This document shows, in pieces, positions 3,201-61,670 of a stretch of DNA of 64,000 nucleotides (positions within the stretch are counted from its first letter, which is position 1; the number at the start of each line of letters is the position of its first letter). Under the pieces are notes generated by a model. That model was given only the letters and a program-made list of their open reading frames with translations, searched no databases and was not told the DNA's origin. The position numbers and the translations under genes were made by a program. The stretch is taken from NCBI GenBank assembly GCA_030390025.1, contig JASTWF010000070.1:930001-994000 (forward strand). The letters run 5' to 3'. The DNA is from Squalus acanthias (Eukaryota).

Positions 3201-3349
3201 ATAGTTTGACCTGCCTTTAAGTATCTTGAAATGTCAACGTTTAATATATTTTCCTGTCTCAGGGCGGCCCTCGAGACCAGATACTTTACGCCTCTCTGGA
3301 ATTTGCTGCCTCGGAAAAGTCATCAAAGAAGAAGACGGGTCGCGGATGA
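240..3349 (+). CDS. Gene A paralog, 3' part (TM plus cytoplasmic exons with ITIM); 5' exons lie upstream of the window
   Basis: Exons 240-341 (GWCSPSLLVAITISVILVLILIFISIWNHKSGRS), 426-456, 672-724, 1294-1343 and 3263-3349 (GGPRDQILYASLEFAASEKSSKKKTGRG*). Lengths and phases are identical to gene A. Confidence 0.82.
940..1218. repeat. Minisatellite (~19-20-bp unit ATTGGCGTATTGGTGGACC) in gene A intron 6; paralog 45900-46270
   Basis: Tandem degenerate units; accounts for ORFs 873-1217 and 45965-46319. Confidence 0.85.
1862..2320. repeat. (TG)n/(TGAG)n microsatellite containing N run 2039-2187; paralog 46902-47290
   Basis: Direct observation. Confidence 0.9.
2327..2885 (+). mobile_element. tRNA-derived DeuSINE (SacSINE1-like)
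   Basis: A/B-box head (GACTCAGTGGGTGG..GGGTTCAAGTC) and Deu core; other copies at ~34127-34510, 36405-36870, 47302-47860, 59683-60520, and minus-strand ~15655-15900 and 58750-58990. Confidence 0.8.
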
Positions 3350-22971: not shown

Positions 22972-23300
22972 TCAGCCTGAACACGTGGAGGCGCTGATGG
23001 TCTTGAGAAGAGGCGAGCTCAGGGAGCCGTGGCTGACGCTGCAGGAATAGCTGGAACCCTTGTTCCAGGCGGCGGCGGGGACTCTCAGGTAACTGCTCAG
23101 GCTGTAGGTTTGATCGCTGTCCGGAGACACGGCGCCTGTCGTCACCCCGCTGTCTGTCTCTTGGCCAACCACGCTCCAGCGGAGCCGCACCAAGCCCGGC
23201 TTGAAGCGACTGGCCAGGCAGGAAAGAGTGGCCGATCCCGAGCCGATTTCTTCCGAGGAGGGAGGGAGGAGAAGAACCGAGAGGCTTCGATCCTCGCTGC
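22972..23300 (-). CDS. Ig light chain type I (sigma-cart) constant exon, open frame
   Basis: SSEDRSLSVLLLPPSSEEIGSGSATLSCLASRFKPGLVRLRWSV..DQTYSLSSYLRVPAAAWNKGSSYSCSVSHGSLSSPLLKTISASTCSG*; the near-terminal Cys would bond to the heavy chain; AATAAA on the minus strand at 22672-22677. Confidence 0.93.
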
Positions 23301-24097
23301 CTGTGGGTGGGGGGAGAGAAAATTCATTAGTTTATAGAATCATTCAGCAGTGGGACGCTCTGATCTGAAATCAAAGACGCCAAAGAACCCCCGAACAACA
23401 TTCACTTTAAAATAAATTACTGATTAATACAGGAGTTCCAATAAATTCTTAAATCTCTAATTCTTCTGCTCCTCTGCCAATTCTTGTCCCTACATTACAA
23501 CAGTGACTTGGTTCAAAAGTATTTCATTGGCTGTAAAGTGCTTAGGGACGTCGTGAGGTCGTGAAAGGAGCTGTAGAAATACAAGTCTCCCTTTCTTTCA
23601 TTCTTCCTTCCTTTCTTCCTTCTTTTCTTTCTTTGAATCTATCTTTCTTTCATTCTTTCTTTCTTTCTTTCTTTCTTTATTTCTTTCTATCTTGTAAAAT
23701 AACAACGGAAAATGCTGGAAATACAGACCGGGTCAGTCAGCATCTGTGAGGTGGAAAGATCAGTAACTGACCAGTTCAGGTGCAGGTTACACTCCCGGAA
23801 CCGCACTAACCTGTCTGTTCCCGTGACAGACACTGACCGAACGGGCCGTGTATTCCCAGCATTTTCTGATTTTATTTAATTTCCTATAATTGCAATTTTT
23901 TCCCTTTTTACTTGAATATAATAAAGCGTTTGATTGTCTTAAAATACGGTCAGTGTTAACTTTAAAGTGGTGAATTCACGGAGCTGTAATCCGCTTTTCA
24001 CCGATAGTCCACATATGTTCTGATACCTCAAACTGATGCAGCCCTTTCAAAGAGCCGCCACAGGCACGATGTGCCGAATGGCCTCCTGCATCATTCT

Positions 24098-24875
24098 CAT
24101 AGAGTCATAGAGTTATACAGCACGGATAGAGGCCCTTCGGCCCATCGTGTCCGCGCCGGCCATCAAGCCCTGTCTAATCTAATCCCATATTCCAGCATTT
24201 GGTCCGTAGCCTTGTATGCTATGGCATTTCAAGTGCTCATCCAAATGCTTCTTGAATGTTGTGAGGGTTCCTGCCTCCACAACCCTTTCAGGCAGTGAGT
24301 TCCAGACTCCAACCACCCTCTGGGTGAAAAAGTTCTTTCTTAAATCCCTTCTAAACCACCCGCCCTTTACCTTGAATCTATGCCCCCTTGTTATAGACCC
24401 CTCTACTAAGGGAAAAAGCTCCTTAGTATCCATCCTATCTATGCCCCTCATAATTTTGTACACCTCAATCATGTCCCCCCTCAGCCTCCTCTGCTCCAAG
24501 GAAAACAAACCCAATCTGCCCAGTATCTCTTCATAGCTGAAGCACTCCAGCCCGGGTAACATTCTGGTGAATCTCCTCTGCACCCTCTCCAAAGCGATCA
24601 CATCCTTCCTGTAGTGTGGCGACCAGAACTGCACACAGTATTCCAGATGTGGCCTAACCAGTGTTTTATACAGCTCCATCATAACCTCCTTGCTCTTATA
24701 TTCTATGCCTCGGCTAATAAATGCAGGTATCCCATATGCCTTTTTTACCACCTTATCCACCTGTTCCGCCGCCTTCAGGGATCTGTGTACTTGCACACCA
24801 AGATCCCTCTGACCCTCCGTCTTGCCTAGGTTCTTACCATTCATTGTGTATTCCCTTGCCTTGTTAGTCTCTCCA
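24098..24875 (-). mobile_element. CR1 LINE 3' fragment in the IgL J-C intron
   Basis: ORF 24179-24844 ([29 protein letters not shown]). Confidence 0.92.
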
Positions 24876-27287
24876 TTCTATAAGAGTCCGGAACTTTTAT
24901 TACGATTCATATTTTTTTAGAATTGCGAGTTAGATTCTGATCAGCTTTAAATGTTGCGGCGATGATAATTGAGCCGGGTCTGTTACCAGGTATTGAAGAG
25001 CTCACTGAATAAAGGGAGGACATTATACACGGGCTGGGAATTAATGTAGTGAGTCTGCCCAACAATATTGTAAATGGTTTACAAAGAATTACACAGAATA
25101 TACAGCACAGAATCAGGCCATTCGGACCAACCAGTCCATGCCGGTGTTTATGCTCCACTCGAGCCTTCTCCCATCCTTCCTCATCTAACTCTATCAGCAT
25201 AACCCTCTATTCCCTTCTCCCTCATGTGCTTATCCAGCCTCCCCTTAAATGCATCTATACTATTCGCCCCAGCACTCCCTGTGGTAGCGAGTTCCACATT
25301 CTCACCACTCTCTGGGTAAAGAAGTTTCTCCTGAATTCCCTATTTGATTTCTTTGGTGACTATCTTATATTGATGGCTCCTAGTTTTGCTCTTCCCCAGA
25401 AGTCGAAACATTCTCTCTGTGTCTACTCTATCAAAGCGTTTCGTAATTATAAAGACCTCTATTCGGCCAACCCTCCGCCTTCTCTTTTCCCCGGTTTGAT
25501 GAAGGGTTTTCAGAGTTCGATATTTCTAGTGAAAGGGGGAGCAATGATTGTAAAAGAATCTTGCTACAGAGGCAAGTAATGATTCACTTTCTCGCGGGTG
25601 AACTGATTTCTCTCTCGGGATCAGGTCTGTCTCGCTGTTCCCGGAGCGATTCGTTCAAACCTGGGAGGTAGCGGGACCCGACAGATCAACCCAGGAGAAT
25701 CGGCGCTATCCCCGGGGGGACACTGGACAGGGAGAGTCAGCAGACACAGCCTGGGGGAGGGAGAGGGTCAGCAGCAACTGAATGAAGTGGAGAGAAAGCT
25801 CCCTTCAACAAGCATCACCCAGTCTCACTCACACACACGGCGCTGGTCAGTAATTGTCATTGCGCCGCTCCATGGTAAAGCGGCGGTTCTGCTCTATAAA
25901 CAGCGGGGAGATTGCAAATAATGACCTGAGACAGATTAAATATCGCAGCACGAAATTCTCAATAAAACCAGTCCCGGCAAACGAATATAATCCCGATTAT
26001 TCCCGGTGTTGCTGGCGACAGGGAGTTGATCCAACCGGTTGTGTGCTGGGACAGCGGGTCGCGGGTGGGTCCTCTCTCTCTCCAAGCCCAGAGCCGGACA
26101 CCCGACGGCTGCGGTCAGGGGGACAATACGCCACAGGAATAAAACCAGCAGCAACATTGAAAGTTGTAAATGACGGTAAACGGGTTGGGATTCCCCGGGA
26201 TCTCTCCCGGCGGCTCCGAGCAATCTATATAAAATCGGGCGGTGCCGACTCTGGACAATAGGAATAATTCCACATACACATAAAGAAGTAAGGGACAGTA
26301 TAGAATCATACAGCACAGAAGGAGGCCATTCGACCCATCGTGCCAGTGCCGGCCCTTTGAAAGAGCTCTCCAATTCGTCCCACTCCCCTGCTCTATCCGC
26401 GGGGCCCTGCAATGTTCTCTTGTTCAAGTCTCAGTGTAACATAGTGACATATGCAGTGTCCACTGTCAGAACTACACAGTGCAGCTCAGAACTTTCCTCT
26501 CTCTCTCTCTCTGTCTCTGTCTCTTGCCGCACCCGAATGATACCGGCGCTTAGAGGGTTAAATTACGAGGACGGGTTGCAGAAACTTGTCCTGTATTCCC
26601 TTGAGGTTAGAAGATTCAGAGTTGATCTGATCGAGGTGTTTAAAATGTGAAAAAGGATTCGATCGGGTCAACACAGAGAAACGATTTCCTCCGGTCGGGG
26701 AATCAAGAACCAGGGGAGATCAACTTAAAATTAGAGCCCGGCCATTGAGGAGGGAAGCACTTTTTCACACAGTCTCGAGTGGCAGAATGGCCTCCTACTG
26801 TTCCTATGTCGCTGTGTTATCAATCAGTGCCACTCGAAGGACATTCAGCCCATCGTGCCAGTGCCGGCTCTTTGAATAGAGCTCTCCAATTATTCCCACT
26901 ACCCTGCACTTTCCCTAAAGCTCTGTATTTTTCCTTTTCAAGTATTTATCCAATTCCTTTTTGAAAGTTACTATTCAATCTGCTTCCACCGCCCTTTCAG
27001 GCAGCGCGTTCCAGATCACAACAACTCGCTGCGTAAAAAGAACACTTCTCCTCATCTCCCCTATTGAATGGGAGCAGGAAATGGTGTCAAACTTCATTTC
27101 AGCGCAGTATTATTCCCCGCTGCGCTTCAACAATTCCAATTCTGACCAGTTTAACATTTTTTGGGTATAAATAGATCCAACATCAAAATTCACTGAATCG
27201 AGATTTCTCTGGCGCCCGGGAATGAAAGCGACTGTAAATTAATAATAATTGAAACAATGTGAATGATAGAATGAGAGAGTCACTTAC

Positions 27288-27640
27288 TCTTTACACTCAG
27301 GGCGGTCCCCGGTCCGAAGAAGTATCCCGTGTCCCACACAGCACAGCAATACACGGCGGAGTCACCGGGCACCAGGGTTCCGATGGTCAGAATGTAACTG
27401 TTACCGGAGGCGTTCTGGAAGATTGAAAACGGTCTGTGAAGCCGGAGCCACGGTAGATGGTGCCATCATGCTTGTGATATATCAAATACACCGGAGCTTC
27501 CCCGGGTCGATGTCGGAACCATTCCACGCTTTTGCTGCCCACAGCCCCGTTCTCCATCGCACACTGTAGCCGGGCGGTCTGACCCGCGGAGACAGGATCG
27601 GATATTGGGGACTGATTGAGGACGGGAGCCGCCATGACAC
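27288..27640 (-). pseudogene. Ig light chain pre-joined VJ exon with FR3 frameshift
   Basis: ORF 27387-27635 stops early. The rest of the V and J continue in the shifted frame (TCC AGA AC GCC, where GAC is expected). YYC reads YCC. Confidence 0.85.
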
Positions 27641-41417: not shown

Positions 41418-44400
41418 ATGTTAAAGGAAGCTTTTTCCCTGATCCTCATTGTCCACGTGTTCTGGCCTTATGGTGAGTGAGACACGGTTGCGAGCTCCTA
41501 AATGGAATCAGCCAAAAACTGGAAACAATGGACTCTGTTTGCTAAGTTGAAAATGTGACCCAGCTAACAGCTTTTGGGCTGATATTTTCGCCCATTCCCT
41601 ATCTCTGTAACCTCCGCCAGTCCTGCTGCTCTCCGAGATCACTGCGCTCCTCCAATTCTGGCCTCTTGAACAACCCCGATTTTAATCGCTCCACCATTGG
41701 CGGGTCGTGCCTTAAGCTGCCTGGGCCCTCAGCTCTGAAATTCCCTCCCTAAACCTCTCCACCTCTCTCTCCTCCTTTAAGACGCTCCTTAAAACCTACC
41801 TCTTTGACCAAGCTTTTGGTCACCTGTCCTAATATCTCAGTTTGTGGTTCGGAGTCAAATTTCTGTAAAGCGCCTGGGGTCCTTTAATTACGTTAAAGGC
41901 GCTGTATCAAAGAAAGTTGTTGTTGATCATGTTGGTTTACTGTCTGGTCCTTTTATAAGGCGAAGTAAAGGCAAACTAGAGAATGGATATAACCAGCAAT
42001 AACTGAAGGCAATAATGATGCTGTTCTTAAATTACAGGCAAGGTGTTTCAACGCGGCTTCTTTCTATCGCTCAATAATCAGTTCTAATATAACAATAATC
42101 CCTCTAGTTGCAGAATCCCAGCCCATCCTGTCTCGGAGCCCCTTCACAGTGACAGCCGGAGTCGGCCAGTCGGTTGAATTTGAATGTCGCCAGATTTATG
42201 AAGTGGAATTTGTGAATAGCTATTTCTGGTACAAGCAGCGTGTGGGTGAAGCCCCGAGACTAATCGATATCCCATCCTGTGATAGGACCGATTGCAAGTT
42301 TACTTCTAAAAAAGGACACACCAAAGAAATACTGATCCTGGAAATCCGCAATGTGCAGGTGGCTGACACCGGCTCCTATTACTGTGCTGATAGGGATAGC
42401 AATGCTCCGCTCCGGAATGGATCCACACTGCTGGTTGGAGGTAAGAGCAAAACCAAATTGAATTCAGATTATGCACAGCAATATCATTCGGTGTAAACTA
42501 AGAGTTAACTGTGTCCCAATCCCTGTCCAGACAGTTCCACACCCAAGACGGCTGTGCTGGTGTTTGCTCCGCCGGGGGAGCCGCATTTAAGGGACACCGT
42601 CCCCTTGGTGTGTTTGGTCACTGGCGTCTCCTCGAACCAGATTGCTATTTACTGGAACGTTACCGGACAGTTGACCGAGGGACGGAGCGATTCCGGTACA
42701 CTGGACCCGGACGGGACCTACAGCATCAGAAGCCATGTGATGGTCTCGGGGGAAGCCTGGAGAAGCGGCGGGGTCTGCACCTGTATTGTTGAGCTGGGTT
42801 CCAAGGACAAATCTTGGGTCAAGAGCGTGTCGCGCCCCAAAACAGTGGCAGGTGAGTCGGTGATCTGTATAGCGAAGATTAGTATTCAGCTTTTGCGTCA
42901 TTTGGAGTAGTTCAATCGCTCCTAAGCGCCTCACGGCTGTAAATAAAGCAACACCACAGGATGAGCATGAATGTCTATATATCAGGAGAAATAGTGCGAT
43001 CAGTCAGTTAAAAAATACATTGAAATAAACAACGGTTACCCTCCGTCCCAGGTCTTGTAAATACTTTCTCCACTCTTGGCTGACTTTTGATTTCTGCGTG
43101 TCATCTTAGAATCATAGAATGATACAACACAGAAGGAGGCCATTCGGCCCATCGTACCTGTGCCGGCTCTTTGAAAGATCTATCCAAATAATCCCACTCT
43201 CCCCTGCTCTTTCCCCACAGCCCTTGCAAGATTCTCGCCTTCAAGTATTTAGCCGGTTCCCTTTTGAAAGTTATTAGTGAATCAGCTTCCATCGCCCTTT
43301 CAGGCAGCGCATCTACAACAACAACAACAACTTGTATTTATATAGCACCTTTAACGTAGTAAAACGTCCCAAGGCGCTGCACAGGAGTATTTTAATACAA
43401 CAAATTTGACACCGATCCACATAAGGATAAATTAGGGCAGGTGACCAAAAGCTTGGTCAAAGAGATAGGTTTGAAGGAGCGTCTTAAAGGAGGAAAGAGA
43501 GGTGGAGAGGTTTAGGGAGGGAATTCCAAAGCTTAAGGCATTGGCAACAGAAGGCACGGCCAACAATGGTGGAGCGATTATAATCAGGAATGCTCAGGAG
43601 GGCAGAATTAGAGGAGCACAGATATCTCAGGGGGTTGTAGGGGCTGGAGGAGATTACAGAGATAGTAAGGGGCGAGGCCATGGAGGGATTTGAAAACAAG
43701 GATGAGAATTTTGAAATCGAGGTGCTTCTTAACCGGCAGCCATTGTAGGTCAGCGAGCACAGCAGGTGATGGGTGAACGGGACTCGGCGTGAGTTGGGAC
43801 ACGAGAGCAGCCGAATTTTGGATGACCTCAAGTTTACGTAGGGTGGAATGTGGGAGGCCAGCCAAGAGTGCGTTGGAATAGTCAAGTCTAGAGGTAACAA
43901 AGGCATGGATGAGGGTTTCAGCAGCGGATGAGCTGAGGCAATGGCAGATACGGGCGATGGAATGGATTGGAGTGAACGCGCTTTCTGACCTGAAGCTAGT
44001 CAATAGATGCGGTGAAATAGTTGGCTGAACGCGTCTGCTGGGATCAGACGCTCGCTCATTTCCACCCGTTTATTTTTTCGTTTCCTGTTTTAAAGACCTG
44101 AACCACCCTTATCAATCCCCACTTTCCCCGTGAAATAGATTTTCGTTTAATCGGGTTATGAAGCTTCACTGAAATTTGGTAATCATTCCAGTTTATCATT
44201 CATAAAACATGGGGGTGTATGTGCACAAATATTTGAAGGTAGCAGGACAAGTCGAGAAGATTGTTAAAAAACATATGGACTCTTTGGCTTTATTAATAGA
44301 GGATTAGAGTACAGAAGCAAGGAAGTTATGCTAAACCTTTATAAAGCAATGGTTGGGCCACAGCTGGAGTATTGTGTCCAGTTCTGGGCACCACAATTTA

Positions 44401-47400
44401 GGAAGGATGTAAAGGCTTGGAGAGGGATGCAGAGGAGATTTGCCAGAATGGTACCACAGATGAGGGACTTCAGTTATGTGGAGAGATTGGAGAAGCTGGG
44501 ATTGTATTCCTTAGAGCAGAGAAGATTAAGAGGAGATTAAATAGAGGTGTTCAATCATGAATCATGATGGGTTGTGATAGAATAAATAAGGAGAAACTTT
44601 TTCCAGTGGCAGAAGGGTCGGTCGCCAAAGGACACAGATTTAAGGTGATTGGCAAAAGAACCAGAGGGGAGATGAGGAAACATTTTTTTATGCAGCGAGT
44701 TGTTGTGATCTGGAATGCGCTGCCTGAAAGGGCGGTGGAAGCAAATTCAATAATAACTTTCAGAATAGAACTGGATAAATACTTGAAGGGATAACATTAA
44801 CAGGGCTATGGGGAAAGAGAAGGGGAGTGGTTCTAATTGGGTAGCTCCACCAACGAGCCGGCACAGCCACGATGGGTTGAATGGCCTCCTTCTGATCTGT
44901 AATCATTCTATGTTTCAGTTTTCAAATAGTATGTTTTCATTGTGTATTATTAAAATTATGGGGCATAACTAAGAGAGCCGTCTGTCAATTTGTCTATCCA
45001 CCAAACTAGTGCAATGTATTCCAATATGAGCTTTCACTTGTCCAATATGCGTCGTATTGGCTGATTTGTCCTTTCACACCCCGGGTTTGATGCTCCTACA
45101 TTGTAACTGGATCACGTTTCTCATAAGAGAATCCCAGAAAGTAATGATTTGACCCAGAAGCATTTTCTAAGTGTTTCTCTCTGTAGGGTGGTGCATCCCG
45201 ACCCTTCCCTTTGCTATAACTGTCTCGGTGAGCCTGGTTCTGGTATTGATCCTCATTTCCATTTGGAATCATAAAAGCGGCAGATCAGGTGAGAATTTAC
45301 GTTTATCAGGAATATTTGAATAAATGTTTGTTTAATGTGACTCCCTTCTCGAAGCGTTAAATACTAATTACAGTTAATTTTTTCAGAAGAACGAGTGAAG
45401 AGACCCCAGAATGAAAGGTGAGTAACTGAACCATTTACAAATTTCATCAGTAACAGTCTCACTGTATTTAACACTGTGTCAAAGCCAGTTAACCCCGACT
45501 CCAATTTCAATATTTTCCACGTTCTTTTAAGATTGAATCAAAGTCCATTCCGCAATTCTGTTCTCGATATTTATGGCATGTGACCAAGGATTTACAAGAA
45601 GTAATGTTTGTTTAACATTTTTGTTTGCATATAGCTTTAGTTTGACAGAGAGAACGATAAGAGCCGGAAGAAATGAACGACACTCAGGTGAGCTGGATTG
45701 AAATGTTGGTGGAGTGAGAACATCAATTGTGGGATATTTCAAAGATCAATAAGTGCATTTCCCGCCATCAAAATGTCCTGCCATCATTCCCCTGTCTGCC
45801 AGATCTACAGAAAGGCAAATTATTGGTTATTAATGCTAACAAATATGTAACAGTTGGACAATAGACGCCAGACACCGGGGGTGGATCATCCATGTCCATC
45901 CATTGGTGTATTGGGATACCATTAGCGTAGTGGGGGATAATTGGCATAATGGGGGATCATTGACCTATTGGGGTATCATTGGGGTATTGGTGGACCATTG
46001 GCTTATTGTGTGATCAACGGCGTTTTGGGGTACCATTAACGTATTGGTGGACCTTTGGCATATGGTGGACCATTGGCATATTGGCGTACCATTGTCGTTA
46101 TGCTGGACCATTGTCGCATTGGTGGACCATTGGCATATGGGTGGACCATTGGTATATTGGGGTACCATTGGCATATTGGGGTGCCGTTGGCGTATTTCTC
46201 GACCATTGTCGTATTGCGGTACCATTGGCATATTGCTGGACCATTGGCGTATTATGGGACCATTGGCTCATGCTGCATCTGTAATTAAATATCGATTAGC
46301 CAGAATTGATAATCTTTAAATTCATATTTTTAACTGTTGATACACAGGTGACACCCGTCAAATGGAGGTGAAGCGGACACATCAGGGTGCAATACATGTA
46401 AGTAAGTTCATTGAACCTGTTGCAATAATATGCAGGAACTTGGTGATTTCTGGGATGGGTGCAATGCGCCACATGCGGAATATTTCACACGGTCCAGATC
46501 ATTTTAATCTGCAGCGAATCCCACTCGTTGCTCCAACTGGAAACAGAACATATCCCGCAGCCCTCTTCCCATCTGATAATAGAAAGAACAGTTAATGTTC
46601 CGGGTAGAATGCATTCGCCAGACTTTACTGCGGATTTCCAGCAGTTTCAGGTTCTATTTCAGATTTCCAGCTTTTTGCTATTTTTTATTCTTTTTATATC
46701 TACATTGAGGCCATGTCCGCTCCCTCCACAATCCCCCGCCTCCTCCCATCAGGCGGAGATACTGTTTTTAATATATTAGCAAAGTTATTATTATGAAGAT
46801 TCAGAAATAAGACGATACCCAGAATAGTTTCACCGATAAGTCAAAATATGTTTCTATGATAAGTCGTCAAAGATAGAATAATTTTGGAGAGAATGTGATT
46901 GNNNNNNNNNNNNNNNNNNNNNNNNNNNNNNNNNNNNNNNNNNNNNNNNNNNNNNNNNNNNNNNNNNNNNNNNNNNNNNNNNNNNNNNNNNNNNNNNNNN
47001 NNNNNNNNNNNNNNNNNNNNNNNNNNNNNNNNNNNNNNNNNNNNNNNNNNNNNNNNNNNNNNNNNNNNNNNNNNNNNNNNNNNNNNNNNNNNNNNNNNNN
47101 NNNNNNNNNNNNNNNNNNNNGTGAGAGTGTAAGTGTGTGTGCGTATTGGAATGTGTGTGTTTGTGTGAGTGTGTTTGTGCGTGTGAGAGTGTGTGTGGAT
47201 GTGTGAGTGGGTGTGTGTGTGTCTGTAAGTGAGTGTCTGAGAGAGTGAGTGTGTGTGTGTATGTATGAGATTTTGTGAGTGTGTAAGTGCGTCTGATTAT
47301 CAGCCGTGCCTCAGTGGATAGCACTCTCGCCTCTGGGTCAGAAGGTCATGGGTTCAAGTCTCCCTCCAGAGACTTGCGCACAAAAATCTAGGCTGACGCT

Positions 47401-48175
47401 GCCAGTGCAGTACTGAGGAAGCGTCGCACAGTCGGAGGGGTATACTGAGGGAGCGCTGTAATGTCAGAGGGGCAGTACTGAGGGAGTGCTGCACTGTCAG
47501 AGGGGCAGTACTAAGGGAGCACTGCACCGTCGCAGGTGCCGTCTTTGAGATGATATGTTAAATTGAGCCCCATTCTGCCCTCTCAGGTCGACGTAAAAGG
47601 ACTCACGCCACTATCTCGAAGAAGAGCATAGGAGAGTTCTCCCTGGTGTGCTTGGCCAATATTTATCCCTCAACCAACATTATTAAAAAGACAGTTTATC
47701 TGGAAATTATCTCATTGCTCTTTGTGGGAGCTTGCTGAGCGCAGACTGGCTGCCACGTTTCCTACATTACAACAGTAACTACAATTCAAAAGTATTTCAT
47801 TGGCTGTAAAGCGCTTTGGAGCGTGCTGAGGTCATGGAAGATGCTGTGGAAATGCAAGTCTATCTTTCTTTTAGGACGTGTGATGGCGTGTGATTCTGTC
47901 TGGGTATGATTGATTGTGTGTGTGTCATTGAGTGTGAGTGTGAGTGTATTTGAGTGTGTAATTGAGTTTGTGTGTGCAATATTCTGTCTGGGTATGATTG
48001 ATTGTGTGTGTGTCTTTGAGTGTGTGAGTGCATGTGATTATGTCTGATTATGATTGATTGAGTGTGTCTGTGATTGATTAAGTGTCAGCATGTGTGTGAT
48101 TATATCTGGGTATGATTGATTATGTGTGCGTCATTGAGTGTGTGAGTGCGTGTGCTTCTGTCTGGGTGTGATTGA

Positions 48176-48210
<35 letters not shown>

Positions 48211-49079
48211 TGATTGAGTAAGGAAGTCTTGCTGCAATTGTACAGTGCCTTGGTGAGACCACACCTGGAGTACTGTGCACCGTTTTGGTCTCCTTATCTA
48301 AGGAAGGATGTACTTGCATTGGAGGCGGTGCAACAAAGATTCACTAGATTGATTCCTGGGATGAGAGGGCTGTCTTATGATGAGCGATTGTGTAGATTGG
48401 GCCTATACTCTCTGGAGTTTAGAAGAATGAGAGGTGATCTCATTGAAACATACAAAATTCTGAAGTGGATTGATTGACAGGGTAGATGCTGAGAGGTTGT
48501 TTTCCCTGGCTGGCATGTCGAGAACTAGGGGGCATAGTCTCAGGATAAGGGGTAGGCCATTTAAGACGAAGATTAGGAGGAATTTCTTCACTCAGAGTGT
48601 TGTGAATCTTTGGAATTCTCTGCCCCAGAGGGCTGTCGATGCTCAGTCTTTGAGTATATTCAAGACTGAGATAGATAGATTTTTGGACTCTAGGGGAATC
48701 AAGGGATATGGAGATCGGGTTGGAAAGAGGAGTTGAGGTCGATGGTCAGCCATGATCTTATTGAATGGTGGAGCAGTCTCGAGGGGCCGAATGGCCAACT
48801 CCTGCTCCTAATTCTTATGTTCTTATGTTCTTATGATCTTTCAAAGAGCCAGCACAGGCACGATGGACCGAATGGCCTGCTTCTGTGCTGCATCGTTCTA
48901 TGATTGCATGAAACGCGACTGCAGGACGAGATAGTTTGACCTGCCTTTAAATATCTTGAAATGTCAATGTTTAAGATATTTTCCTGTCTCAGGGCGGCCC
49001 TCAAGACCAGATACTTTACGCCTCTCTGGAATTTGCTGCCTCGGAAAAGTCATCAAAAAAGAAGGCGGATCGCGGATGA
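41418..49079 (+). CDS. Gene A (complete): non-rearranging VJ-C1-TM-ITIM Ig-superfamily receptor, PRARP/VJC1-like, 343 aa
   Basis: Eight GT-AG exons splice in phase without stops: 41418-41472 leader MLKEAFSLILIVHVFWPY; 42108-42440 V(J) (VEFEC..YFWYKQ..DTGSYYCADRDSNAPLRNGSTLLVG); 42531-42851 C1 (PLVCLV..IYWNV..DGTYSIRSHVMV..VCTCIV); 45187-45288 stalk+TM GWCIPTLPFAITVSVSLVLVLILISIWNHKSGRS; 45387-45417; 45635-45687; 46348-46397; 48993-49079 GGPQDQILYASLEFAASEKSSKKKADRG*. Total 1032 nt. The last five exons are conserved in the paralog at 240-3349. Confidence 0.85.
42108..42440 (+). CDS. Gene A exon 2: V-set Ig domain with fused J-like G strand
   Basis: Covered by ORF 42149-42496; canonical Cys, WYKQ and DxGxYYC; acceptor ctctag and donor G|GTAAGA; no RSS. 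Confidence 0.9.
42531..42851 (+). CDS. Gene A exon 3: C1-set Ig domain
   Basis: Covered by ORF 42554-42910; LVCLV, W, DGTYS..S.V.V..W and CTC C1 motifs; acceptor ccag and donor GTGAGT. Confidence 0.9.
43315..43965 (-). mobile_element. L2-clade LINE 3' fragment
   Basis: ORF 43608-44003 (AETLIHAFVTSRLDYSNALLAGLP); (CAA)n tail. Confidence 0.88.
44205..44915 (+). mobile_element. CR1 LINE 3' fragment
   Basis: ORFs 44328-44540 and 44564-44794. Confidence 0.9.
48215..48905 (+). mobile_element. CR1 LINE 3' fragment
   Basis: ORFs 48214-48477 and 48470-48736; (TTCTTATG)n tail; only its 3' part remains at ~2885-3175. Confidence 0.9.
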
Positions 49080-49412
49080 GAACCCGGAGGGTTTCTATCC
49101 GATGGATGCGGGCGGAGACAGGACTTACAAAAGAACCCACAGCCTGCTGGAAAAAGAATGGAGCCACGGAGAATCCCGTCAAACGTCTAAACTATCTGCC
49201 TGCACTCGCCAGAGTTTGCAAAAACTCTTTCTCTTCAATGTAACGAACGTGCTTTGAGTATTGTAAAGATACTCCACTGCATTAGTGTAATTCAAGTGTG
49301 AGACAAACATTAAGAGCAGGGACTTCTCGGTTTGGTGTTTCTCTGAACCTTTCCTGCTCATCCTGCAGCTCCAGTTAATAACAAGATTTTCGTTTGCAAA
49401 TGCTTGTGTATT

Positions 49413-49418
49413 AATAAA
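49413..49418 (+). terminator. Candidate polyA signal of gene A (paralog 4819-4829)
   Basis: Overlapping AATAAA motifs ~330 nt after the stop, conserved in both copies. Confidence 0.5.
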
Positions 49419-49534
49419 ATAAAATTTTCTCCGAATTTAAAGATGCACGAGAGGTTCCTTTCGACCAATACTTCACTTATATTTAAATGTGATCAGGATA
49501 AAACTTCAATGACTATTGAGGTGACAATATCGGT

Positions 49535-50176
49535 TTATTGCAAGGGGGTTGGAGTATAAAAGCAGGGAACTCCTGCTACAACTGTACAGGATATTGTTGA
49601 GACCACACCCTGAGTACTGCGTACAGTTTTGGTCTCCTTAGTTAAGGAAGGATATACTTTCATTGGAGGCTGTTCAGAGACGATTCACTAGGTTAATTCC
49701 AGAGATGAGGGGGTTGACTTATGAGGAAAGGTTGAGCAGATTGGGCCTATACTCATTGGAATTTAGAAGAATGAGAGGGGATCTTATTGAAACATCTAAG
49801 ATATTGAGGGGGCTCGACAAGGTAGATGCAGAGAGAATGTTTCCCCTCGTGGGGAAATCTAGAACACGGGGGCATAGTTTCAGAATAAAGGTTCGCCCTT
49901 TTAGAACTGAGATGAGGAGGAATTTCTTCTCTCAGATTGTCGTAAATCATTGGAATTCTCTTCCCCAGACAGCCGTGGAGGCTGGGTCATTAAATAAATT
50001 TAAGGTGGAGATAGACAGATTTTTACAAGATAAGGGAGTCAAGGGTTATGGGGAGTGGACAGGGAAGTGGCTTTGAGCCCAAGATCAGCCATGATCTTAT
50101 TGAATGGCAGAGCAGGCTCGAGGGGCCAAGTGGCCTATTCCTGCTCCTATTTCTTAACTTCCTATGTTCTTATGTC
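49535..50176 (+). mobile_element. CR1 LINE 3' fragment specific to copy 2
   Basis: ORF 49663-50076; empty site at ~4940 in copy 1. Confidence 0.88.
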
Positions 50177-53100
50177 CTGAATTAAGATACTTTTAGTGGC
50201 GATATCCTCTGTCTGAGAAGCGAGATGCTTAATCATTTACAGACTAAGAACACAACAGGAGAGATTCGCGGACAGAGATGCGGGGAATTGTGCCTGGTTC
50301 AATTTGACCTTTGGGGTAGTGTGTTTTGCTATATGTAGTAATGTCAAAACTACATGTCAGAGACAGATGGTGAGTGCAGCGTGGCTTGGGAGGAATGGGT
50401 GATATTGGACCTGTGGTTTTCTAAAGCTCTCCACCACTGGGGTTTGCTTACGTCAGGTCTGGGTCTGTTGTGGACTCGTGGGTAGGGATGGATTGCCATG
50501 ACAACCCCATTATCATTGTATCATGCGACCACCAGGATGGTAGAAGGTGAACTCGGTGGACCTTGGCCTTTTTCCGTCTAGCAATTCCTATGTTCAAGAT
50601 CCCAGGTATGCACAGTATTGGGCGAGAATATTCAACCAGAGACAGGATTGCACCATAGGTGGTTATATTGCTTTATCCATCAGAGTCAGATCAGTCTAAG
50701 TATTCCCCTGCTGATTAGTTTGGAATTAGCATGTACAACCGAATGAGATCCAAGAGCAGCAAAAACTGTTCCTGGCAAAGACCCTTTCAAATCCATCTCC
50801 CAGTATCTGTCCAATAAATCATATGAGGATTTGAATAAATTCCTAACAACCGTGTTCTTCTTAATGTTAGTTTATACTGTAGGGTTCTATAAAGCAGATC
50901 TAAGTTCACCAGGACGATACCGGGGCAAAGAGGGTTACATTCTAAGAACAAGTTGCATAGAGTAGGCTTGTATTATTTTGAGTTTAGAAGATTAAGGTGA
51001 ACTAATTGAGATGTTAAAGATGATTAAAGGATTCGATAGGGTAGATAGAGAGAAACTATTTCCTCTGGTGGGGAGAGTCCAGAACAAGAGGGCAGGATCT
51101 TAAAATGAGAGCCAGGTCGTTCAGGGGTGATGTCAGATGCACATCTTCACACAAAACCTAGTGGAAATCTAGAACTCTCTCATCCAAAAAGTTGTTGAGG
51201 CTGGGGGTCAATTGGAAATATCAAAACTCAGGTTGATAAATTTTTGTTGGGTAAGGGTATTAAAGGTTACGGAAACAAGGCGGGTAAATGGAGTTAAGAT
51301 ACAGATCAGCCGCGATCTAATTGAATGGTGGATCAGTCTCCAAAGGCTGAATGGCCTCCTCCTGTTCCAATGTTCCTGTCGCAAGTAGGATAATTAGTTC
51401 GGACGACTAAAAGGCAAGTTGAAGACTGATTTTTGGAGGTTCATCACACAAAGAGTGATCAGCACATGGAATGGTCCTCTTGGTGGGGTGGTGTGAATGA
51501 AAACCCCTGGAGTCATTTAGGAAACAGTTTGGCTGCCCTGATGGGCGAGAAGGTCAGAACCTTTCTGGATTCCTGAGCTAAGTTTGGCAGAATGGCTTTT
51601 TTCACCTGCAGTGATCTTGTGACAAGTGTCTCCAAATACGCTTTGCAATAACTGTGCAGAATATTTTGACAGCAGAATATTGTTAATTTCGGCTAGTTTC
51701 TATCCCCTCGGTACATGAATTACAAGAGATTCTCGATGAGATCAGAGCCTAATAAACAGCTCCATTATCCATTAATCACCACACCAACGGCCTCATACCC
51801 AGCTTTTAAATGTGTATGAAATCGAAGGTGTGCCCGAAAAATATCACAGCATCTCAGCGAAACAGCCTTTGAATTTTACTCTTGTATTTGACAGATTTCC
51901 TAATGTGAAGAGCGTATTGTGTTACCGCTGCGAATTATTAGCATCACCAGCAAAACGCTTTCAGTCACAGCCGAAGGGTTCTGCTTTACAAAGTTACGAA
52001 GTGTTCACAGCACAGAAACAGGCCATTCGGCCCCACTGGTCCGTGCCGGGGTTTCTGCTCCACACCAGCCTCCTCCCACCCCCCTTCATCTCACCCCATC
52101 AGCATAGCCTTCTATTCCTTTCTCCCTCATGTGTTTATCAAGCTTCCCCTTAAATGCATCTATGCTATTCGCCTCAACCACTCCCTGTGGCAGCGAGTTC
52201 CACATTCTCACCACTGTCTGGGTAAAGAGGTTTCTGCTGAATTCCTTATTGGATTTATTAGTGACTATCTTATATTTATGGCCCCTAGTTCTGGTCACTT
52301 CACAAGTCAAAACAACTTCTCTTCCTATCAAACCCTTTCATAATCTTAAAGGCCTCGATCATGTCACCCCTCAGCCTTCCCTTTTCAGGAGAAAAGAGCC
52401 CCAGCCTGTTCAATCTTTCCTGATGTGTATAACCTCTCAGTTCTGTATCATCCGTGTACATCTTTTTTGCACCTTCTCCAGTGCCTCTATATCCTTTTTA
52501 TAATATGGAGACCAGAAGTGTGCACAGTGTTCCAAGTGTGGTCTAACCAAGGTTCGATACAAGTTCAACATATCTTCTCTGCTTTTCAATTCTATTCCTC
52601 TAGAAATGAAACCCAGTGCTTTGGTTGGCTTGTTTTAATGTCCTTGTTAACCTGTGTCGCTACTTTTAGTGATTTGTGTACCTGCACCCCAGATCCTCTA
52701 CCCCATATCAAAACGTATTTTCTGAGAACTAATAGAAACTAATAGTGGGTAAAAGCCACCATAAATTTGGTGACGAAATCACTTAACTGCATTATTAAAA
52801 AAGAGCAGATAGATTTAAAATAATCTACTTTCAATTATAAATGTGACAGAGTTCACTCGTAGGACAGAAGCAGAGAACGTTCGGGATCCAGTTACACAAG
52901 AACATAAAAAATAGTAGCAGGAGTCGGCCAAGCGGCCCCTCGAGCCTGCTCCGCCATTCAATAAGATCATTGCTGATTTTTTACCTCATCTCCACTTTCC
53001 TGCACTATCGCCATATCCCTTGATTTCCTTGGAGTCCAAAAATCTATCGATCTCTGTTTTGAATATACTCAACGACTGAGCCTCCACAGCCCTCTGGGGT

Positions 53101-54226
53101 AGAGAATTTCAAAGATTCACCATCCTCTGAGTGAAGAAATTTCTCCTCACCTCAGTCCTAAATGGCCGACCCCTTATTCTGAGACTGTGACCTCTTGTTC
53201 TGGACTCCAAAGCCAGGGGAAACATGCTCCCAGCATCTACCCTGTCAACCCCTGTAAGAATTTTGTATGTTTCAATGAGATCACCTCACATTCTTCTAAA
53301 CTCCAGCTTTAATATCAATGCAGCCTAAATCCGGAGGCAGTGCCTGAGCTGCCCAGTCGGTCCTGAGCCCCACTTTTGAACCGCATACATTTACTCTATA
53401 AATGTGCATTGTAAATCGGCGGTAGAGATACACTGAGCGCATCTGGACTGAACGATCAAAGGGCTGGAATCACAAACACAATGCTGGAGTTTGAAAAACC
53501 TGTTTTATTGCGTTTGTAACTCGGACACTGATGCATTGTAAAGATTATTTGAATTATATCGTGCTCACATACAAAGACGCGAAATGATTCTAAAAACGCC
53601 AATACAGGACAGGAGAAGCATGTCGAGATTGAACCGAAGCTGCAGGCGATGTGTCATCTTAAGAGTAGCGGACGATGTGTAAGAGAGAATTTAAATATGT
53701 TTAGAATTTCCGCTTTGGGCCGAAATTTGCCATTTGCAAAATGCGCTTGAATTTGCGCCGGTTCTATTCGGCGTTAAGACTGTGCAGTAGACGATACGCC
53801 GTTACTGCATTGATCAGTATGTCTTTCGAGTGAGTGTTAATTATTGATAAATGTGCATCAAGTCGGTAAGAGAACGTGAGATCGCCGCAGTGAGACATCA
53901 ATGAAGATAGCAATTGAACACTTTAGCTTCACGTCACTGCTTCCAATAGTCGGATTTCTGCCGTGCTTTGGGACTTGAACACGGCGTATCAAAGTCTCTC
54001 GGAAGGGTTCACACCTCAGGGCTCTACTGCGCTGGTTGGTCTTCTGAATGAGATTGCCAATTTCCTGTCAATGGATCCCAAATGCACGCGGAAGCGGCAC
54101 ACAATTGAGGAACTGCAGGCTTGAATTGTTACTGAGCAGCGTGTCGTACTGATCCCACAATGAGAGCAAAGCAGAGGGAACTTTCCACAACACGTCATAT
54201 CCGGCAGGCGCTCGCTTTCCTTTCCG

Positions 54227-57200
54227 TCAGAGGGTCGGAACCGCATTAAACGCCAGGTGCGCGTAAAGAGTCTATGAGAGAAAACATAAACCATTATCAT
54301 GGCCCACATCATCATCATACGAACAGAGGGACAGGAGGAGGCTGTTCAGCCCCTCGAGCCTGTTCCGACATTCAGTCAGATCATGGCTGATCTGTATCTT
54401 AACTCCATCTACCCGCCTTGGTTGCCTCACCCTTAATCCCCTTACCCAACAAGAATCTATCAAAAATCTCTCAGTTTTGGATATCCAATTGACCCCCAGC
54501 CTCGACAGCTTTATCGGGGAGAGATTTCCAGATTTCCATCACCCTTTGTGTGAAGAAGTACTTCCTGACATCACCGCTAAACGGCCTGGCTCTAATTTTA
54601 AGGTGATGCCCCCTTTGTTCTGGACTCCCCCCACCAGAGGAAATAGTTTCTGTCTATCTACCCCATCAAATCCTTTAAACATCTTAAACACCACCATTAG
54701 ATCACCCCTTAATATTCTATACTAGAAGGAATATAAGCCTAGTCTGTGCAACCTGTCCTCATAACTTGGCCCTTTTAGCCCCGGGTATCACTCTGGTGAA
54801 TCATCATTCTGTAACTTAAGATATCCAGATCTATATTTTTTAATCTACGTTCGCAGTTTTACATTAAAGGAAAACAGTGCTATCCTGCAGTGCTCACGAT
54901 GCAAAGTTTTATAGAATCATTAATTATGAATCTTAAACATTGGGTTAAAACCAGTGCAAGTTATCGACTTATGTTGAGCAAAAACAATTATTTTCATAAC
55001 TACCTCCTTGTCTTGTGCACGTGGTCTCGAATCCGTCAATTTCTGATCGCTGTTCGTGTTGCCTGATATAAAGAGAAACTCAATCTAAGTCTAAATGCAC
55101 ACATTTCACACTGAAAGGACCCACTAACATGTAATGAGCAAACAACACAATAAATGGATTGATTGGGAGCGCCGTGGAGTTGGAGCGCCTCCCGACAACC
55201 GCTACCTGACCGCCGGTTCCTGCAGCTCCTTCCCGCGGCGACAATAACCACCGGCAGAAGGAGAAGCGCCGCCGCCGAACTCCCGTAAAGCAGTAACCTG
55301 CAGCTGGTTTGTAGCGGGGGCTCTGAAGAAAGAAAAAAAACTTTATTTTTTTTAAAACCCGTAACCCGAGCCTTCTGGTTCTCGCAGAAGGTTCAAGGTG
55401 GCCCAACACCACCTTCTCAGGACCACTAGGGATGGACAATCTATGGCAGACTTACCAGCGTCACACACACCACGAGAACAAATTAAAAATGTTGCTGAAA
55501 ATCATTNNNNNNNNNNNNNNNNNNNNNNNNNNNNNNNNNNNNNNNNNNNNNNNNNNNNNNNNNNNNNNNNNNNNNNNNNNNNNNNNNNNNNNNNNNNNNN
55601 NNNNNNNNNNNNNNNNNNNNNNNNNNNNNNNNNNNNNNNNNNNNNNNNNNNNNNNNNNNNNNNNNNNNNNNNNNNNNNNNNNNNNNNNNNNNNNNNNNNN
55701 NNNNNNNNNNNNNNNNNNNAACCTATCGAAGGGTAGGGCACTGAAGGAGACTATAAGGCCCTCCATGTTTGTGCCGGCTCTTTGGTAGATGGATCCAAAA
55801 CCAATCCCATTACCCGGCTCTCCCTCCATATTCCTGTATCAATCCAAAACTAATCCCAAATCCCACTCTGTCCTTTGGAATGCACTAGTTACCACCCATC
55901 GCCGATCTGAGGAATACCCATTTACCCTATCCCCTTATTTCTTGTCTGTCATCTTACTTTCCATCCAGGCTGCCACATCTCCTTCACACCATACGTCTAT
56001 ATTGTTTCCCAACAGCCTTCTTGTGCGACACCTTTTCAAACGCCTCCTGGAATTCCATACACGTTACATCTACTGCAATCCCTTTAACTATCCAATCGGT
56101 CAATTCTACAAAAGCTCTATTAAATTAGTTAAACACGACTCCACTTTCACAAATCGGTGCTGGTTGTCCTTAACTAGCCCAGCCATTTAGAAATGCTCAC
56201 CACTTTCATTTCAAATTACGGATTCTAAGCGTTTGTCCGCAACTCATCTGATCTATGGTAGCCCAAGTGACACCTTTCTCCTCTCTTAGATGAAACGTTA
56301 GATTGAATCCGTTTGGGTCGGAAGAATAAGGAGGTCACATACTCCTTTGAAAATTAGTGTCTAAACGGAGTAGAGGATCAGTGGGATCTGGAGGTACAGA
56401 TACACAAATCACTAAAATTAGCGACGCAGGTTAATACGGCCATAAAAAAGCAAACCAAGAACTGGGGTTCATTTCTAGAGGGATAGAATTGAAACGCATT
56501 AAATAATGTTCAATTTCTATAGAACCTTGGTTAGACCACACTTGGAATACTGTGAACATTTCTGGGCTCCATATTATAAAGAGGATATAGAGACACTGGA
56601 GAAGATACAAAAAGATTTACTAGGATGATATCAGAATTGAGACATTGTACCTATCAGGAAAGATTGAATAGGCTGGGGCTCTTTTGTCTACAAAAGTGAA
56701 GACTGAGAGATGACCTGATAGAGGAATTTAGGTTATGAAAGGGCTTACAGAGGATTACATAGGATATATGGCACAAAAACAGGCCATTCGGTCCAACCAG
56801 TCCATGTCGTCGTTTATGCTCCACTCGAGCCTCCTCCCGTCTTTCCTCAACTAAATCTATCAGCTTGTCCCTCTATTCCCTTCTCCCTCATACGCTTAGC
56901 TCGCCTCCCCTTAAAATGCATCTATACTATTCGCTTCAGACACTCCCTGTGGTAGCGAGTTCCACATTCTCACCACTCTCTGGGTAAAGTTGTTTCTCCT
57001 GAATTACCTTTGGATTGCTTGGCGACTATCTTATATTGATGGCCTCTAGTTATGCTCTTCCCCAGAAATGGAAACATTCTCTCTCTATCTACTCTATCAA
57101 AACCTTTGATAGGGTAGACTTGGAGAAGTTGTTTCCCTTGTGGTGCGGGGGAGACCAGAACTAGACGCCATAAATATAAGATAGTCACTATTAAAGCCAA

Positions 57201-59206
57201 TTGGGAATCCTGGAGAAACTTCTTTACCCAGAGATTGGTGAGAATGTGGAACTCGCTACCACAGGGAGTGGTTGAGGCGAATAGTATAGATGCCTTTAAG
57301 GGGAAGTTCGATAAACAGATGAGGGAGAAAGGAATAGATGGATATTGATGGGTTTATAATGAAGTGGGATGGGAGGGGACTCGTGTGGAGCATATACACC
57401 GGCACGGACCTGTTGGGCCAAATGGTCTGTCTCTGTGCTGTACATACTGTGTAATACAGATACCTACATACAGGCATCGAGAGAGAAAGTGATAAACTGG
57501 AAATGGCATTATACTTTCCAATTTTACCCATGGACAGCTCAGACAGATTCCTTCTCTCCCAACATATAAGTATGGCTTAGCTGGAAAAATTGACTTTTAT
57601 AATTCAGAAAGCTCAACCCTGCAACATTGAGAGAGGTAAATGATTGGGTAATTCTACATGGACACGCAGAAAGGGAGTGACTTTGAATGTAAAAAGTGAT
57701 ATTGCTAACAATTAACTCTTACATCAGCATAGAAGATATTACTGAAGGGTCACTGCCACTAGTTACCTCTCTGAGATGAGACATTTTCACTGATCAGATC
57801 CCCAGTGGAGTTGATTGGAACGGCGCAAGTACAGACAGTGCCGCTGCTCCAAGTTTCCGCCGAGACGCTGATGTGACTCCTGACAGTATAGGTCCCGTCC
57901 TGATCTATTGTCCCGGAATCGCTCGGTTCCTCGGTAAACTGTCCGGAAACATTCCAGCGAATGGGAATGGAATCGGGAGACAGGCTTTTCACCAAACACA
58001 TCAATGGGACCCTTTCCAGCGAGGGAATTTCATCTGGCGGCGGAGCTAAGAGAAAGATTTCCGGAGACCCTGCGGAGTTTGGGGGGTTAAAATACCATTA
58101 ATATTCTACGTAAATTCGTCGTTATTTATGATAAAATGAGTGAAGCAATCGCAATTCTTACCTGCAATGAACAATTTCGAGCCGTTTCCGAATATCAAGG
58201 GCATTCCGCTAGATTTCTTAGCTGCGCAGTAATACACCCCCGCATCATTCCTCTGGACATCTTTCACAATCAGAGAGTAAATACTGGATTCGTTGTTAAC
58301 CTGTCCGGAAAATCTTCCTTCAGGCGGCATGTGCTTCCACACGGTGTAAACTAGCTGTAGATGCTCTCGGTGCTGTCGCTTATACCAAAGTACAGCTCTT
58401 GCTGCTAACCAACCCGTGTGACAATCCACCTTAAAGATACTTCCAACGGAGACAGTCTGAACCGGCGAATTCTGCCGGAAAACTTCCTGAGAGACAATAA
58501 CTGAGAGAAGAACATATTCACAAGAGGGTCTGTTACACGGCAGAAATAAACACCGCTTCCTAAAAAGAAACGGGTACAGTGTTAAACTGTGAATAGGACC
58601 ATCCGATCATTAATGATCATGGATCCTAATATCTAAATGAGTCAAAAGCTGGGGGTTAAAATTGAGCCAATGAAATGAAGGAAGGAAGAATGAAAGAAAG
58701 AATGAAAGAGAGAAAGAAAGAAAGCAAGAAAGAAAGAAGGAAATAAAGAAAGATCTTTACAGCCAATGAAATACCTTTTGAAGTGTAGTCACTGTTGTAA
58801 TGTAGGAAACGCGGCAGCCAAATTGCGCACAGCAAGCTTCCACAAACAGCAATGTGATAATGACCAGGTAATCTGTGATGTTGATTGAGTGATATAATAT
58901 TGGCCCCAGGATACCGGGGAGAACTCCCCAGCTCTCCTTCCAATAGTGGCCGTGGGATCTTTTACATCCACCTGAGAGGACAGACGGGACATCCGATAGA
59001 TGGAAAATATTGACATTTGGTCTAATTTAATTCGCCTGAGATAATCCAGTCCTTCAACAGGACACTAATATTAGAGAATAAAGCGCGCACTCTTCTACTT
59101 GTCTGACTAGCTCAATGATCTTACGCCGGAATTCCGCCATGAAGTTAATGCACATACACTGACCTGGAAAGAGATGGAACAGCGGGCAGGGAGTTAAGAA
59201 GCTCAT
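54227..59206 (-). CDS. Gene B copy 2 (complete): non-rearranging VJ-C1-TM receptor, 301 aa
   Basis: Exons 59164-59206, 58162-58500 ([24 protein letters not shown]), 57767-58069, 55206-55322 ([31 protein letters not shown]), 55004-55062 and 54227-54271 ([14 protein letters not shown]). All have the same lengths as in copy 1 and the frame is open. Confidence 0.87.
57767..58069 (-). CDS. Gene B copy 2 C1 exon
   Basis: ORF 57759-58004, extended in frame to the acceptor. Confidence 0.9.
58162..58500 (-). CDS. Gene B copy 2 VJ exon
   Basis: ORF 58106-58429; FGNG J motif; donor GTAAGA. Confidence 0.9.
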
Positions 59207-61399: not shown

Positions 61400-61670
61400 A
61401 AGAAAAGCCCAGTACTGCAATTTCAAAGTTTATTAGAAGGACACAGCCTCCTTACTGTGTTTTGTCAGTGGTGTTTCCTCGAACCGGAATGCTATTTTCT
61501 GGGATGTTTCCGGACGGGGTTACAGAGCGACGCACCGATTCCCGGTACAATAGACGCGGACGGGACCTACGGTAACAGAAGTCACATCAGTGTCTCGGTG
61601 CAAGCTTGGAGCAGCGGCGCTGTCTGTAATTTGTGCTGTTCCACTAGACTTCCCCAGCTAAAATATGGAG
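61400..61670 (+). pseudogene. Degenerate C1 exon, duplicate of 18470-18730
   Basis: Same sequence with the same frameshift pattern (GTIDADGTYGNRSHISVSVQAWSSGAVC). Confidence 0.8.

Follow-up and report, generated by a model that had tools for sequence, protein, structure and literature searches.

Within a 64,000-nucleotide stretch of the 3.7 Gb Squalus acanthias genome (contig JASTWF010000070.1, positions 930,001 to 994,000, or G000:C3553:930001-994000 in our numbering; hereafter the window) lie two copies of a ~43-45 kb block, each carrying gene A on the plus strand and, convergent with it, gene B on the minus strand. We conclude, with slightly better than even confidence, that A and B are intact, non-rearranging membrane genes combining a fused variable-joining (VJ) exon with a C1 domain and one inhibitory-type tyrosine motif each, and that their products likely form a heterodimer shaped like a Fab or a T-cell receptor (TCR), with a predicted disulfide at the outer membrane surface, which would dampen cell activation without CD3.

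The two genes lie tail to tail, and in both the VJ segment is unsplit in one exon, followed by C1 and then a transmembrane (TM) exon. Exons were placed from splice sites and reading phase, with key codons checked; all junctions are GT-AG with consistent phases and agree with NCBI models of shark homologs. Gene A copy 2 (plus strand; eight exons, 341 amino acids) begins with a leader exon at 41418..41472, whose ATG and phase-1 GT donor match the shark homolog models, followed by the single-exon VJ at 42108..42440, which contains an additional Cys pair and whose J-like motif is degenerate (Pfam V-set, E=1.4e-9), a C1 exon at 42531..42851 with C-x-C in its F strand (Pfam C1-set, E=1.4e-10), an exon with the stalk Cys and an uncharged TM segment at 45187..45288, three small Tyr-free tail exons (45387-45417, 45641-45687, 46348-46397) and a last exon at 48993..49079 that holds ILYASL (Tyr 49017-49019) and the stop. 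Gene B copy 2 (minus strand; six exons, 301 amino acids) has its leader at 59164..59206, where homologs also start, a single-exon VJ with a canonical FGxG J motif at 58162..58500 (V-set, E=2.1e-11), a C1 exon, again with an F-strand C-x-C, at 57767..58069 (C1-set, E=1.7e-11), the stalk-Cys and TM exon at 55206..55322, in which a cytoplasm-side Cys is a possible palmitoylation site, tail exon 1 at 55004..55062 and a last exon at 54227..54271 with TLYAHL (Tyr 54263-54265) and the stop. In the other block, the TM and tail exons of gene A copy 1 occupy 240-341, 426-456, 678-724, 1294-1343 and 3263-3349 (240..3349, plus strand), its leader, V and C exons lying intact upstream of the window, and gene B copy 1 is intact at 16070-16112, 15117-15455, 14722-15024, 12087-12203, 11885-11943 and 8974-9018 (8974..16112, minus strand), so that every exon of both pairs is intact. 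A scan of the window for recombination signal sequences (RSS; perfect heptamer, nonamer with at most two mismatches) found none, and Pfam matched no family on the A and B TM exons. Four RNA runs from other organisms covered the V, C and TM exons thinly, with no exon joint among the rows listed, and were not used as evidence.

AlphaFold models of the basking-shark A and B orthologs show two immunoglobulin (Ig) domains and one helix that starts at about the stalk Cys. Fold searches with both chains returned mostly antibody light chains, including the best overall match, with TCR chains among the weaker matches of B; a general claim that B is heavy-chain-like was rejected on these matches. An Atlas search returned only V/C1 clusters plus SIRP and NCR3-like look-alikes. 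Within the C1 domains of A (42533-42850, plus strand) and B (57768-58067, minus strand), the F-strand aromatic residue is replaced by Cys to give the C-x-C; we rejected its unpaired first Cys as an alternative interchain bond, since it occupies an inward-facing aromatic position (Phe or Val in other rows) and is judged to be buried. The C1 of B copy 1, and of some other sharks, has a further Cys five residues earlier that could form an extra intradomain bond, and the extra Cys pair of the A V domain is kept in most sharks.

A preliminary description of the stretch had reported GWC in the stalk of both A copies, and QTNC or QTSC in that of B with an additional Cys in copy 1. The codons bear this out: the A motif is G|WC, with the Gly codon spanning the splice junction and Cys codons at 45192-45194 (copy 2) and 245-247 (copy 1), and in B, copy 2 reads QTSC (Cys 55300-55302) and copy 1 QTNC (Cys 12181-12183), the latter with the additional Cys at 12199-12201. 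Of the 22 B TM exons of the genome only 2 have this last residue, which was rejected as a family feature in favour of a paralogue-specific one. The stalk Cys itself is conserved widely. In alignments running from sharks to turtles and lungfish, its column holds 21 Cys and 3 gaps in A (24 rows) and 26 Cys and 2 gaps in B (28 rows), the gaps being gene models without a TM exon, and its conservation goes beyond chance because the flanking stalk columns vary freely (no residue in more than 10 rows). Elasmobranch-type homologs have it without exception (15/15 A, 20/20 B). Among bony vertebrates an automatic window located it in 11 of 14 B-types and 8 of 9 A-types, and the four misses do show a Cys in their segments; of 120 mostly turtle A-types from turtles, crocodilians and caecilians, 13 were set aside and the 107 with an aligned hydrophobic TM all carry it (107/107). 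A third, lungfish-rich homolog group is less consistent (3/6). In the dogfish genome itself the Cys is present at 30 of 30 A TM loci read (out of 32 matches), made up of 23 genuine copies and 7 inverted, broken fragments, and at 21 of 22 B TM loci, the 22nd being frameshifted; these copies are young, so the cross-species data weigh more. In both chains the distance from the Cys to the cytoplasmic boundary is mostly 24-27 residues, and in the basking-shark models the Cys stands at the start of the predicted TM helix. The sequences thus support a disulfide-capable Cys at matching depth in both chains.

The hydrophobic cores of the four window copies contain no Lys, Arg, Asp or Glu, as the preliminary description had it for Lys and Arg, and their best 19-residue Kyte-Doolittle means are 2.66 (A2), 3.24 (A1), 2.33 (B2) and 2.51 (B1). 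An Arg that had been placed at the outer edge of B is indeed there in copy 2, directly after the stalk Cys (55297-55299); with Arg at Cys+1 in only 1 of 20 elasmobranch-type B homologs it is paralogue-specific, and it was rejected as an adaptor site for want of conservation. According to the available parts of PMC1440944 and PMC2413239, assembly with signalling dimers needs a well-placed basic TM residue, a central Lys for DAP12 or an N-terminal Arg for FcR-gamma, and activating receptors require such a residue (PMC1440944, in part). The window copies of A and B have none, which makes use of CD3 unlikely.

The preliminary description further had the pair signal through tyrosine motifs of its own. 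Each tail does carry a single Tyr: that of A lies in an immunoreceptor tyrosine-based inhibitory motif (ITIM), ILYASL, and that of B in TLYAHL, which resembles an ITIM or the related switch motif (ITSM), both terms being used in their consensus definitions. Bony-vertebrate B-types have T-x-Y-A-x-V/L in the tail, and a caecilian B-type member, P0091, is automatically named 'programmed cell death protein 1', reflecting its ITSM-like tail. No activating counterpart (ITAM) is present in either chain, and a lone inhibitory-type Tyr without an ITAM is likely to act as a brake rather than as TCR-like activation; the claim therefore holds in the form of one motif per tail, with the correction that these motifs point to probable inhibition through SH2 phosphatases. 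The same features bear on whether A and B could, in the manner of pre-T-alpha, join CD3 or a genuine TCR chain as a surrogate or invariant TCR-like set, or serve as a co-receptor. Their V-C1-TM layout, the TCR chains among the weaker fold matches of B and their linkage to an antigen-receptor (Ig light-chain, IgL) locus would fit such a role, which we nonetheless regard as very improbable given cores without a basic residue, long Tyr-bearing tails and a Cys at the helix start with no connecting peptide, where TCR chains have one.

A and B appear to be old and distinct. In a tree of 51 V+C1 sequences (midpoint-rooted, with one IgL outgroup; two further sequences without the anchor motif were left out), shark A falls together with the A-types of lungfish, sturgeon, caecilian, turtle and alligator (92/88), and A-types stand apart from all B-types (91/90). 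As judged by equal contig sizes, A- and B-types occur on the same contigs in basking shark, catshark, zebra shark, sterlet, caecilian and turtles. With moderate tree support, A and B would be separate ancient lineages that are still linked. The homologs of the window genes matched at 45-76% identity are all elasmobranch, and intact orthologs extend across elasmobranchs and bony vertebrates, with homologs in sturgeons, bichirs, lungfish, coelacanth, newt, caecilian, turtles, lizards and alligators; birds do not appear among the named homolog matches listed.

Several features suggest that the two chains pair with each other. At one V-interface position Pro occupies 21 of 24 A rows and Leu 22 of 28 B rows; the A residue aligns with the interface Pro of antibody light chains, and Pro and Leu pair at the VL/VH interface. 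On the window's own scaffold, C3553, 20 of the 21 A TM exons have a facing B 8-18 kb away, and A and B are both intact or both not in 17 of 20 cassettes whose status was read by hand (Fisher p=0.0045; p=0.09 after merging near-identical duplicates). The ratio of non-synonymous to synonymous differences (pN/pS, from pairwise counts that are not independent) is 3.1 in the complementarity-determining region (CDR) loops of A versus 0.84 in its framework (11 sequences), and ~0.6 throughout the V of B (13 sequences), B values of 0.5-0.6 denoting purifying selection. Because the stalk Cys is conserved, the lineages are separate, ancient and linked, Pro and Leu are complementary and 20 of 21 A genes face a convergent B, a disulfide-linked A:B heterodimer is likely, homodimers also being possible, and we lean slightly towards A:B as the preferred pairing. 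What survives of the TCR-shaped disulfide heterodimer in the preliminary description is a pair of TCR- or Fab-shaped V-C1 chains without CD3-binding charges and with Cys at matching depth, their pairing supported indirectly by the ancient split with linkage, the V-interface residues and the 1:1 arrangement.

Other observations weigh against this conclusion. The 1:1 arrangement follows partly from block duplication; the tree supports fall below the starred threshold; the interface Phe is absent from the J motif of A in sharks (Leu in 12 and Phe in 11 of 24 rows); both chains fold like antibody light chains, with a single residue of B recalling a heavy chain, and proteins of light-chain type can form homodimers; and a conserved stalk Cys would serve homodimers equally well. 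Chicken PRARP proteins reportedly gave monomers and homodimers besides heterodimers. Shark UrIg2, also non-rearranging, is given in the available part of PMC12227049 as a homodimer with a non-Fv interface, and CD8 exists as alpha-beta and alpha-alpha forms (PMC7596257, in part). Such points fit a reading of A and B as linked but independent inhibitory receptors, forming A:A and B:B disulfide homodimers or pairing promiscuously like CD8 alpha, which we consider possible though rather unlikely. It would also agree with a Tyr motif on each chain and with three cassettes in which one intact inhibitory gene sits beside a dead partner; it accounts less well for a Pro/Leu complementarity conserved across jawed vertebrates, for A and B lineages linked from sharks to turtles, and for the asymmetric selection, which is what a variable chain with a conserved partner would be expected to show.

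The uncharged core, although true of the window copies, does not extend to the family as a rule. Lys occurs in the TM segment, at Cys+9, in 4 of 23 A copies, its codons (three AAG, one AAA) differing at two bases from the usual Thr codon. Two of these copies have lost the ITIM Tyr, and their B neighbours have changed Tyr to Phe; the third, at C3553 ~868 kb, has an intact ectodomain and a tail that ends after a few residues, and the fourth keeps its ITIM. Genome-wide, an in-frame ITIM is absent from 3 of 4 Lys copies versus 1 of 19 others (p=0.009; 0.056 after merging duplicates). Among the B genes, one whose leader, V and C are intact (C3553 ~220 kb) has acquired Arg at Cys+7 through a single base change and lacks tail exon 1, so has no in-frame Tyr motif. 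Turtles possess an Arg-bearing, short-tailed subgroup: in a turtle-dominated A set with rows that are not independent, the Tyr motif is missing from 11 of 16 rows with Arg at Cys+6 versus 11 of 91 others, and lungfish, sturgeon and skate members have a similar Arg with no tail Tyr motif. Since Lys- or Arg-bearing members without an ITIM occur both here and in turtles, we interpret A and B as a paired-receptor family with a recurrent design. A further caution concerns the state of these copies: both Tyr-to-Phe B genes contain a fragment of reverse transcriptase from a long interspersed element (LINE) in the V exon (L105 and L108; C3553 ~1215 kb and ~1332 kb); next to them, one A carries a V frameshift and the second A has lost a canonical V Cys. 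As their cassette partners are damaged, the activating-type copies may be decaying. Intact genes on the scaffold as a whole number ~9 for inhibitory A and 9 for B. There is also another, divergent B-type V (49-54% identity), its C exons broken, at G000:C3553:131693, 1067272, 1227518 and 1339556 and at C24:48886536, which we read as an older B sub-lineage.

Between the two A/B pairs of the window lies an Ig light-chain minicluster on the minus strand (22972..27640), with a germline-joined VJ exon at 27288-27640 that contains a frameshift and an open C exon at 22972-23300; it is probably sigma-2, to judge in part from neighbouring accessions in sawfish. Light-chain C exons of a single type (56 matches of at least 76% identity on C3553, C24, C185 and C3349) are interspersed among around 20 A/B pairs, the light-chain cluster having been amplified together with the pairs along the scaffold. 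The sawfish B protein XP_051901910.1 bears the accession next to XP_051901911, which the available part of PMC12227049 gives as a sawfish sigma-2 IgL; this adjacency suggests that the A/B-IgL linkage is likely common to rays. A search for class I genes of the major histocompatibility complex (MHC) placed 0 of 46 matches on C24 or C3553, and one for MHC II beta found no match anywhere, its controls likewise being without a match.

In another reading the window copies would be passengers, multiplied with the IgL clusters and now decaying, their Cys and motifs persisting only through recent duplication. Only 7 of 20 cassettes have both inhibitory genes intact, stops and frameshifts are numerous and a LINE insertion occurs, about 55 light-chain C matches share the array, and the A C exons have a pN/pS of 2.6 (7 sequences). 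We find this reading improbable, because both window pairs are intact in every exon, B is under purifying selection and intact orthologs exist across elasmobranchs and bony vertebrates; moreover, it bears on copy number and not on protein design.

A cassette on chromosome-scale C24 (46.64 Mb and 48.85-48.89 Mb, compared with C3553:128-166 kb) is nearly identical to one on the unplaced C3553; the C3553 array is probably either part of C24 or to some extent a haplotype duplicate, and some near-identical cassettes may be assembly duplicates. Degenerate A-type C1 exon remnants with frameshifts and stops lie upstream of each B (window ~18440-18790 and ~61380-61740, plus strand), and many A genes have inverted, broken copies of the A TM and last exons ~4-8 kb upstream (L019, L020, L021, L023, L025, L029, L030 and L075-L082; window ~37030-37150, minus strand). 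Positions 9930-11750, 29230-31300 and 16820-17610 of the window hold long LINE reverse-transcriptase remnants, presumably CR1-like, and a 33-bp tandem array joined to a repeat resembling a short interspersed element (SINE).

In the heterodimer that we favour, V-V and C1-C1 packing would follow that of a Fab, with A supplying the light-chain-type Pro and B the Leu, and would bring the two stalk Cys together at equal depth; the dimer would reach the surface without an adaptor. Ligand binding would lead to phosphorylation of the A ITIM and the ITIM/ITSM-like motif of B, and thereby to engagement of SH2 phosphatases (SHP-1/2), possibly with one SH2 domain per chain. The rarer paralogues that lack a tail Tyr and have Lys (A) or Arg (B) in the TM segment would be activating counterparts that act through DAP12 or FcR-gamma/zeta-type adaptors, and mixing in trans of the intact A and B genes could yield a small germline combinatorial repertoire. 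Taken further, A and B might be a surviving TCR-shaped heterodimeric receptor from before RAG, whose ~20 tandem pairs beside IgL clusters provide a germline mix-and-match repertoire of V pairs, with diversifying A loops on a conserved B, an inhibitory form that splits ITIM and ITSM over two chains, and activating forms that gained adaptor-binding charges independently; we advance this only tentatively, as a rather unlikely proposal. If true, it would illustrate a way for an antigen-receptor scaffold of two chains to signal before CD3. Unsplit VJ genes are sought as relatives of the gene into which the RAG transposon inserted, and the shark candidates named in the available part of PMC12227049, UrIg and UrIg2, are homodimers; a conserved membrane pair of VJ-C1 chains beside IgL clusters offers a testable model both of a heterodimeric ancestor and of CD3-free signalling. 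A and B are equally a candidate paired-receptor family resembling those of natural killer (NK) cells, in sharks and turtles, mislabelled in databases as immunoglobulin chains.

Among known systems, TCR chains share with A and B the succession of V, C1, stalk Cys and TM in two different chains, the split leader and a J-like motif. A and B differ from them in having no RSS or rearrangement, no basic TM residues and no Cys-helix connecting peptide of the kind found in TCR chains, and in having long tails with inhibitory-type Tyr motifs. Closer are the chicken genes PRARP1/PRARP2 (attributed to Fu et al. 2019, J Immunol 202:1992) and the Xenopus VJC1 genes (attributed to Ohta et al. 2019), which are said to form a gene pair with an unsplit VJ exon, to have V-C1 in non-avian species and to carry one ITIM or ITSM per chain; disulfide-linked dimers have reportedly been described, as have homologs in bony fish, amphibians and reptiles. 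On those reported features A and B match as a linked, non-rearranging VJ pair of V-C1 form with one ITIM or ITSM-like motif per tail, and differ in that both keep a full C1, are amplified ~20-fold among IgL clusters and include Lys- or Arg-bearing members without an ITIM. Likened through such description only, A and B are a probable shark variant of the PRARP1/2 kind. PRARP is named among the VJ genes in the MHC in the available part of PMC10751288, whereas the MHC class I matches here lie on other contigs than A and B. We found no literature description of an A/B pair in cartilaginous fish, although an earlier mention is possible, for example in the supplements or locus tables of PMC12227049. 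The elasmobranch UrIg and UrIg2, as described in the available part of PMC12227049, likewise have a non-rearranging single-exon VJ followed by C1 and linkage to antigen-receptor or MHC regions; UrIg has three C1 domains and is secreted, UrIg2 has 9-11, and both are single-gene homodimers, whereas A and B have one C1 exon each, a two-gene pair and signalling tails. A and B are thus neither TCR chains nor UrIg. CD8 alpha-beta (PMC7596257, in part) is comparable as a disulfide heterodimer of V-set chains with a homodimer option and a cytoplasm-side Cys for palmitoylation, but has an O-glycosylated stalk in place of C1 and binds Lck, where A and B have Tyr motifs. Finally, the KIR, LILR/PIR, CD94-NKG2 and SIRP families, on the available parts of PMC1440944 and PMC2413239, resemble A and B in setting uncharged ITIM members beside members with a central Lys (DAP12 type) or an N-terminal Arg (FcR-gamma type) and in multigene birth and death; A and B are set apart from them by antigen-receptor-type VJ-C1 domains and by an inhibitory motif on each of two chains.

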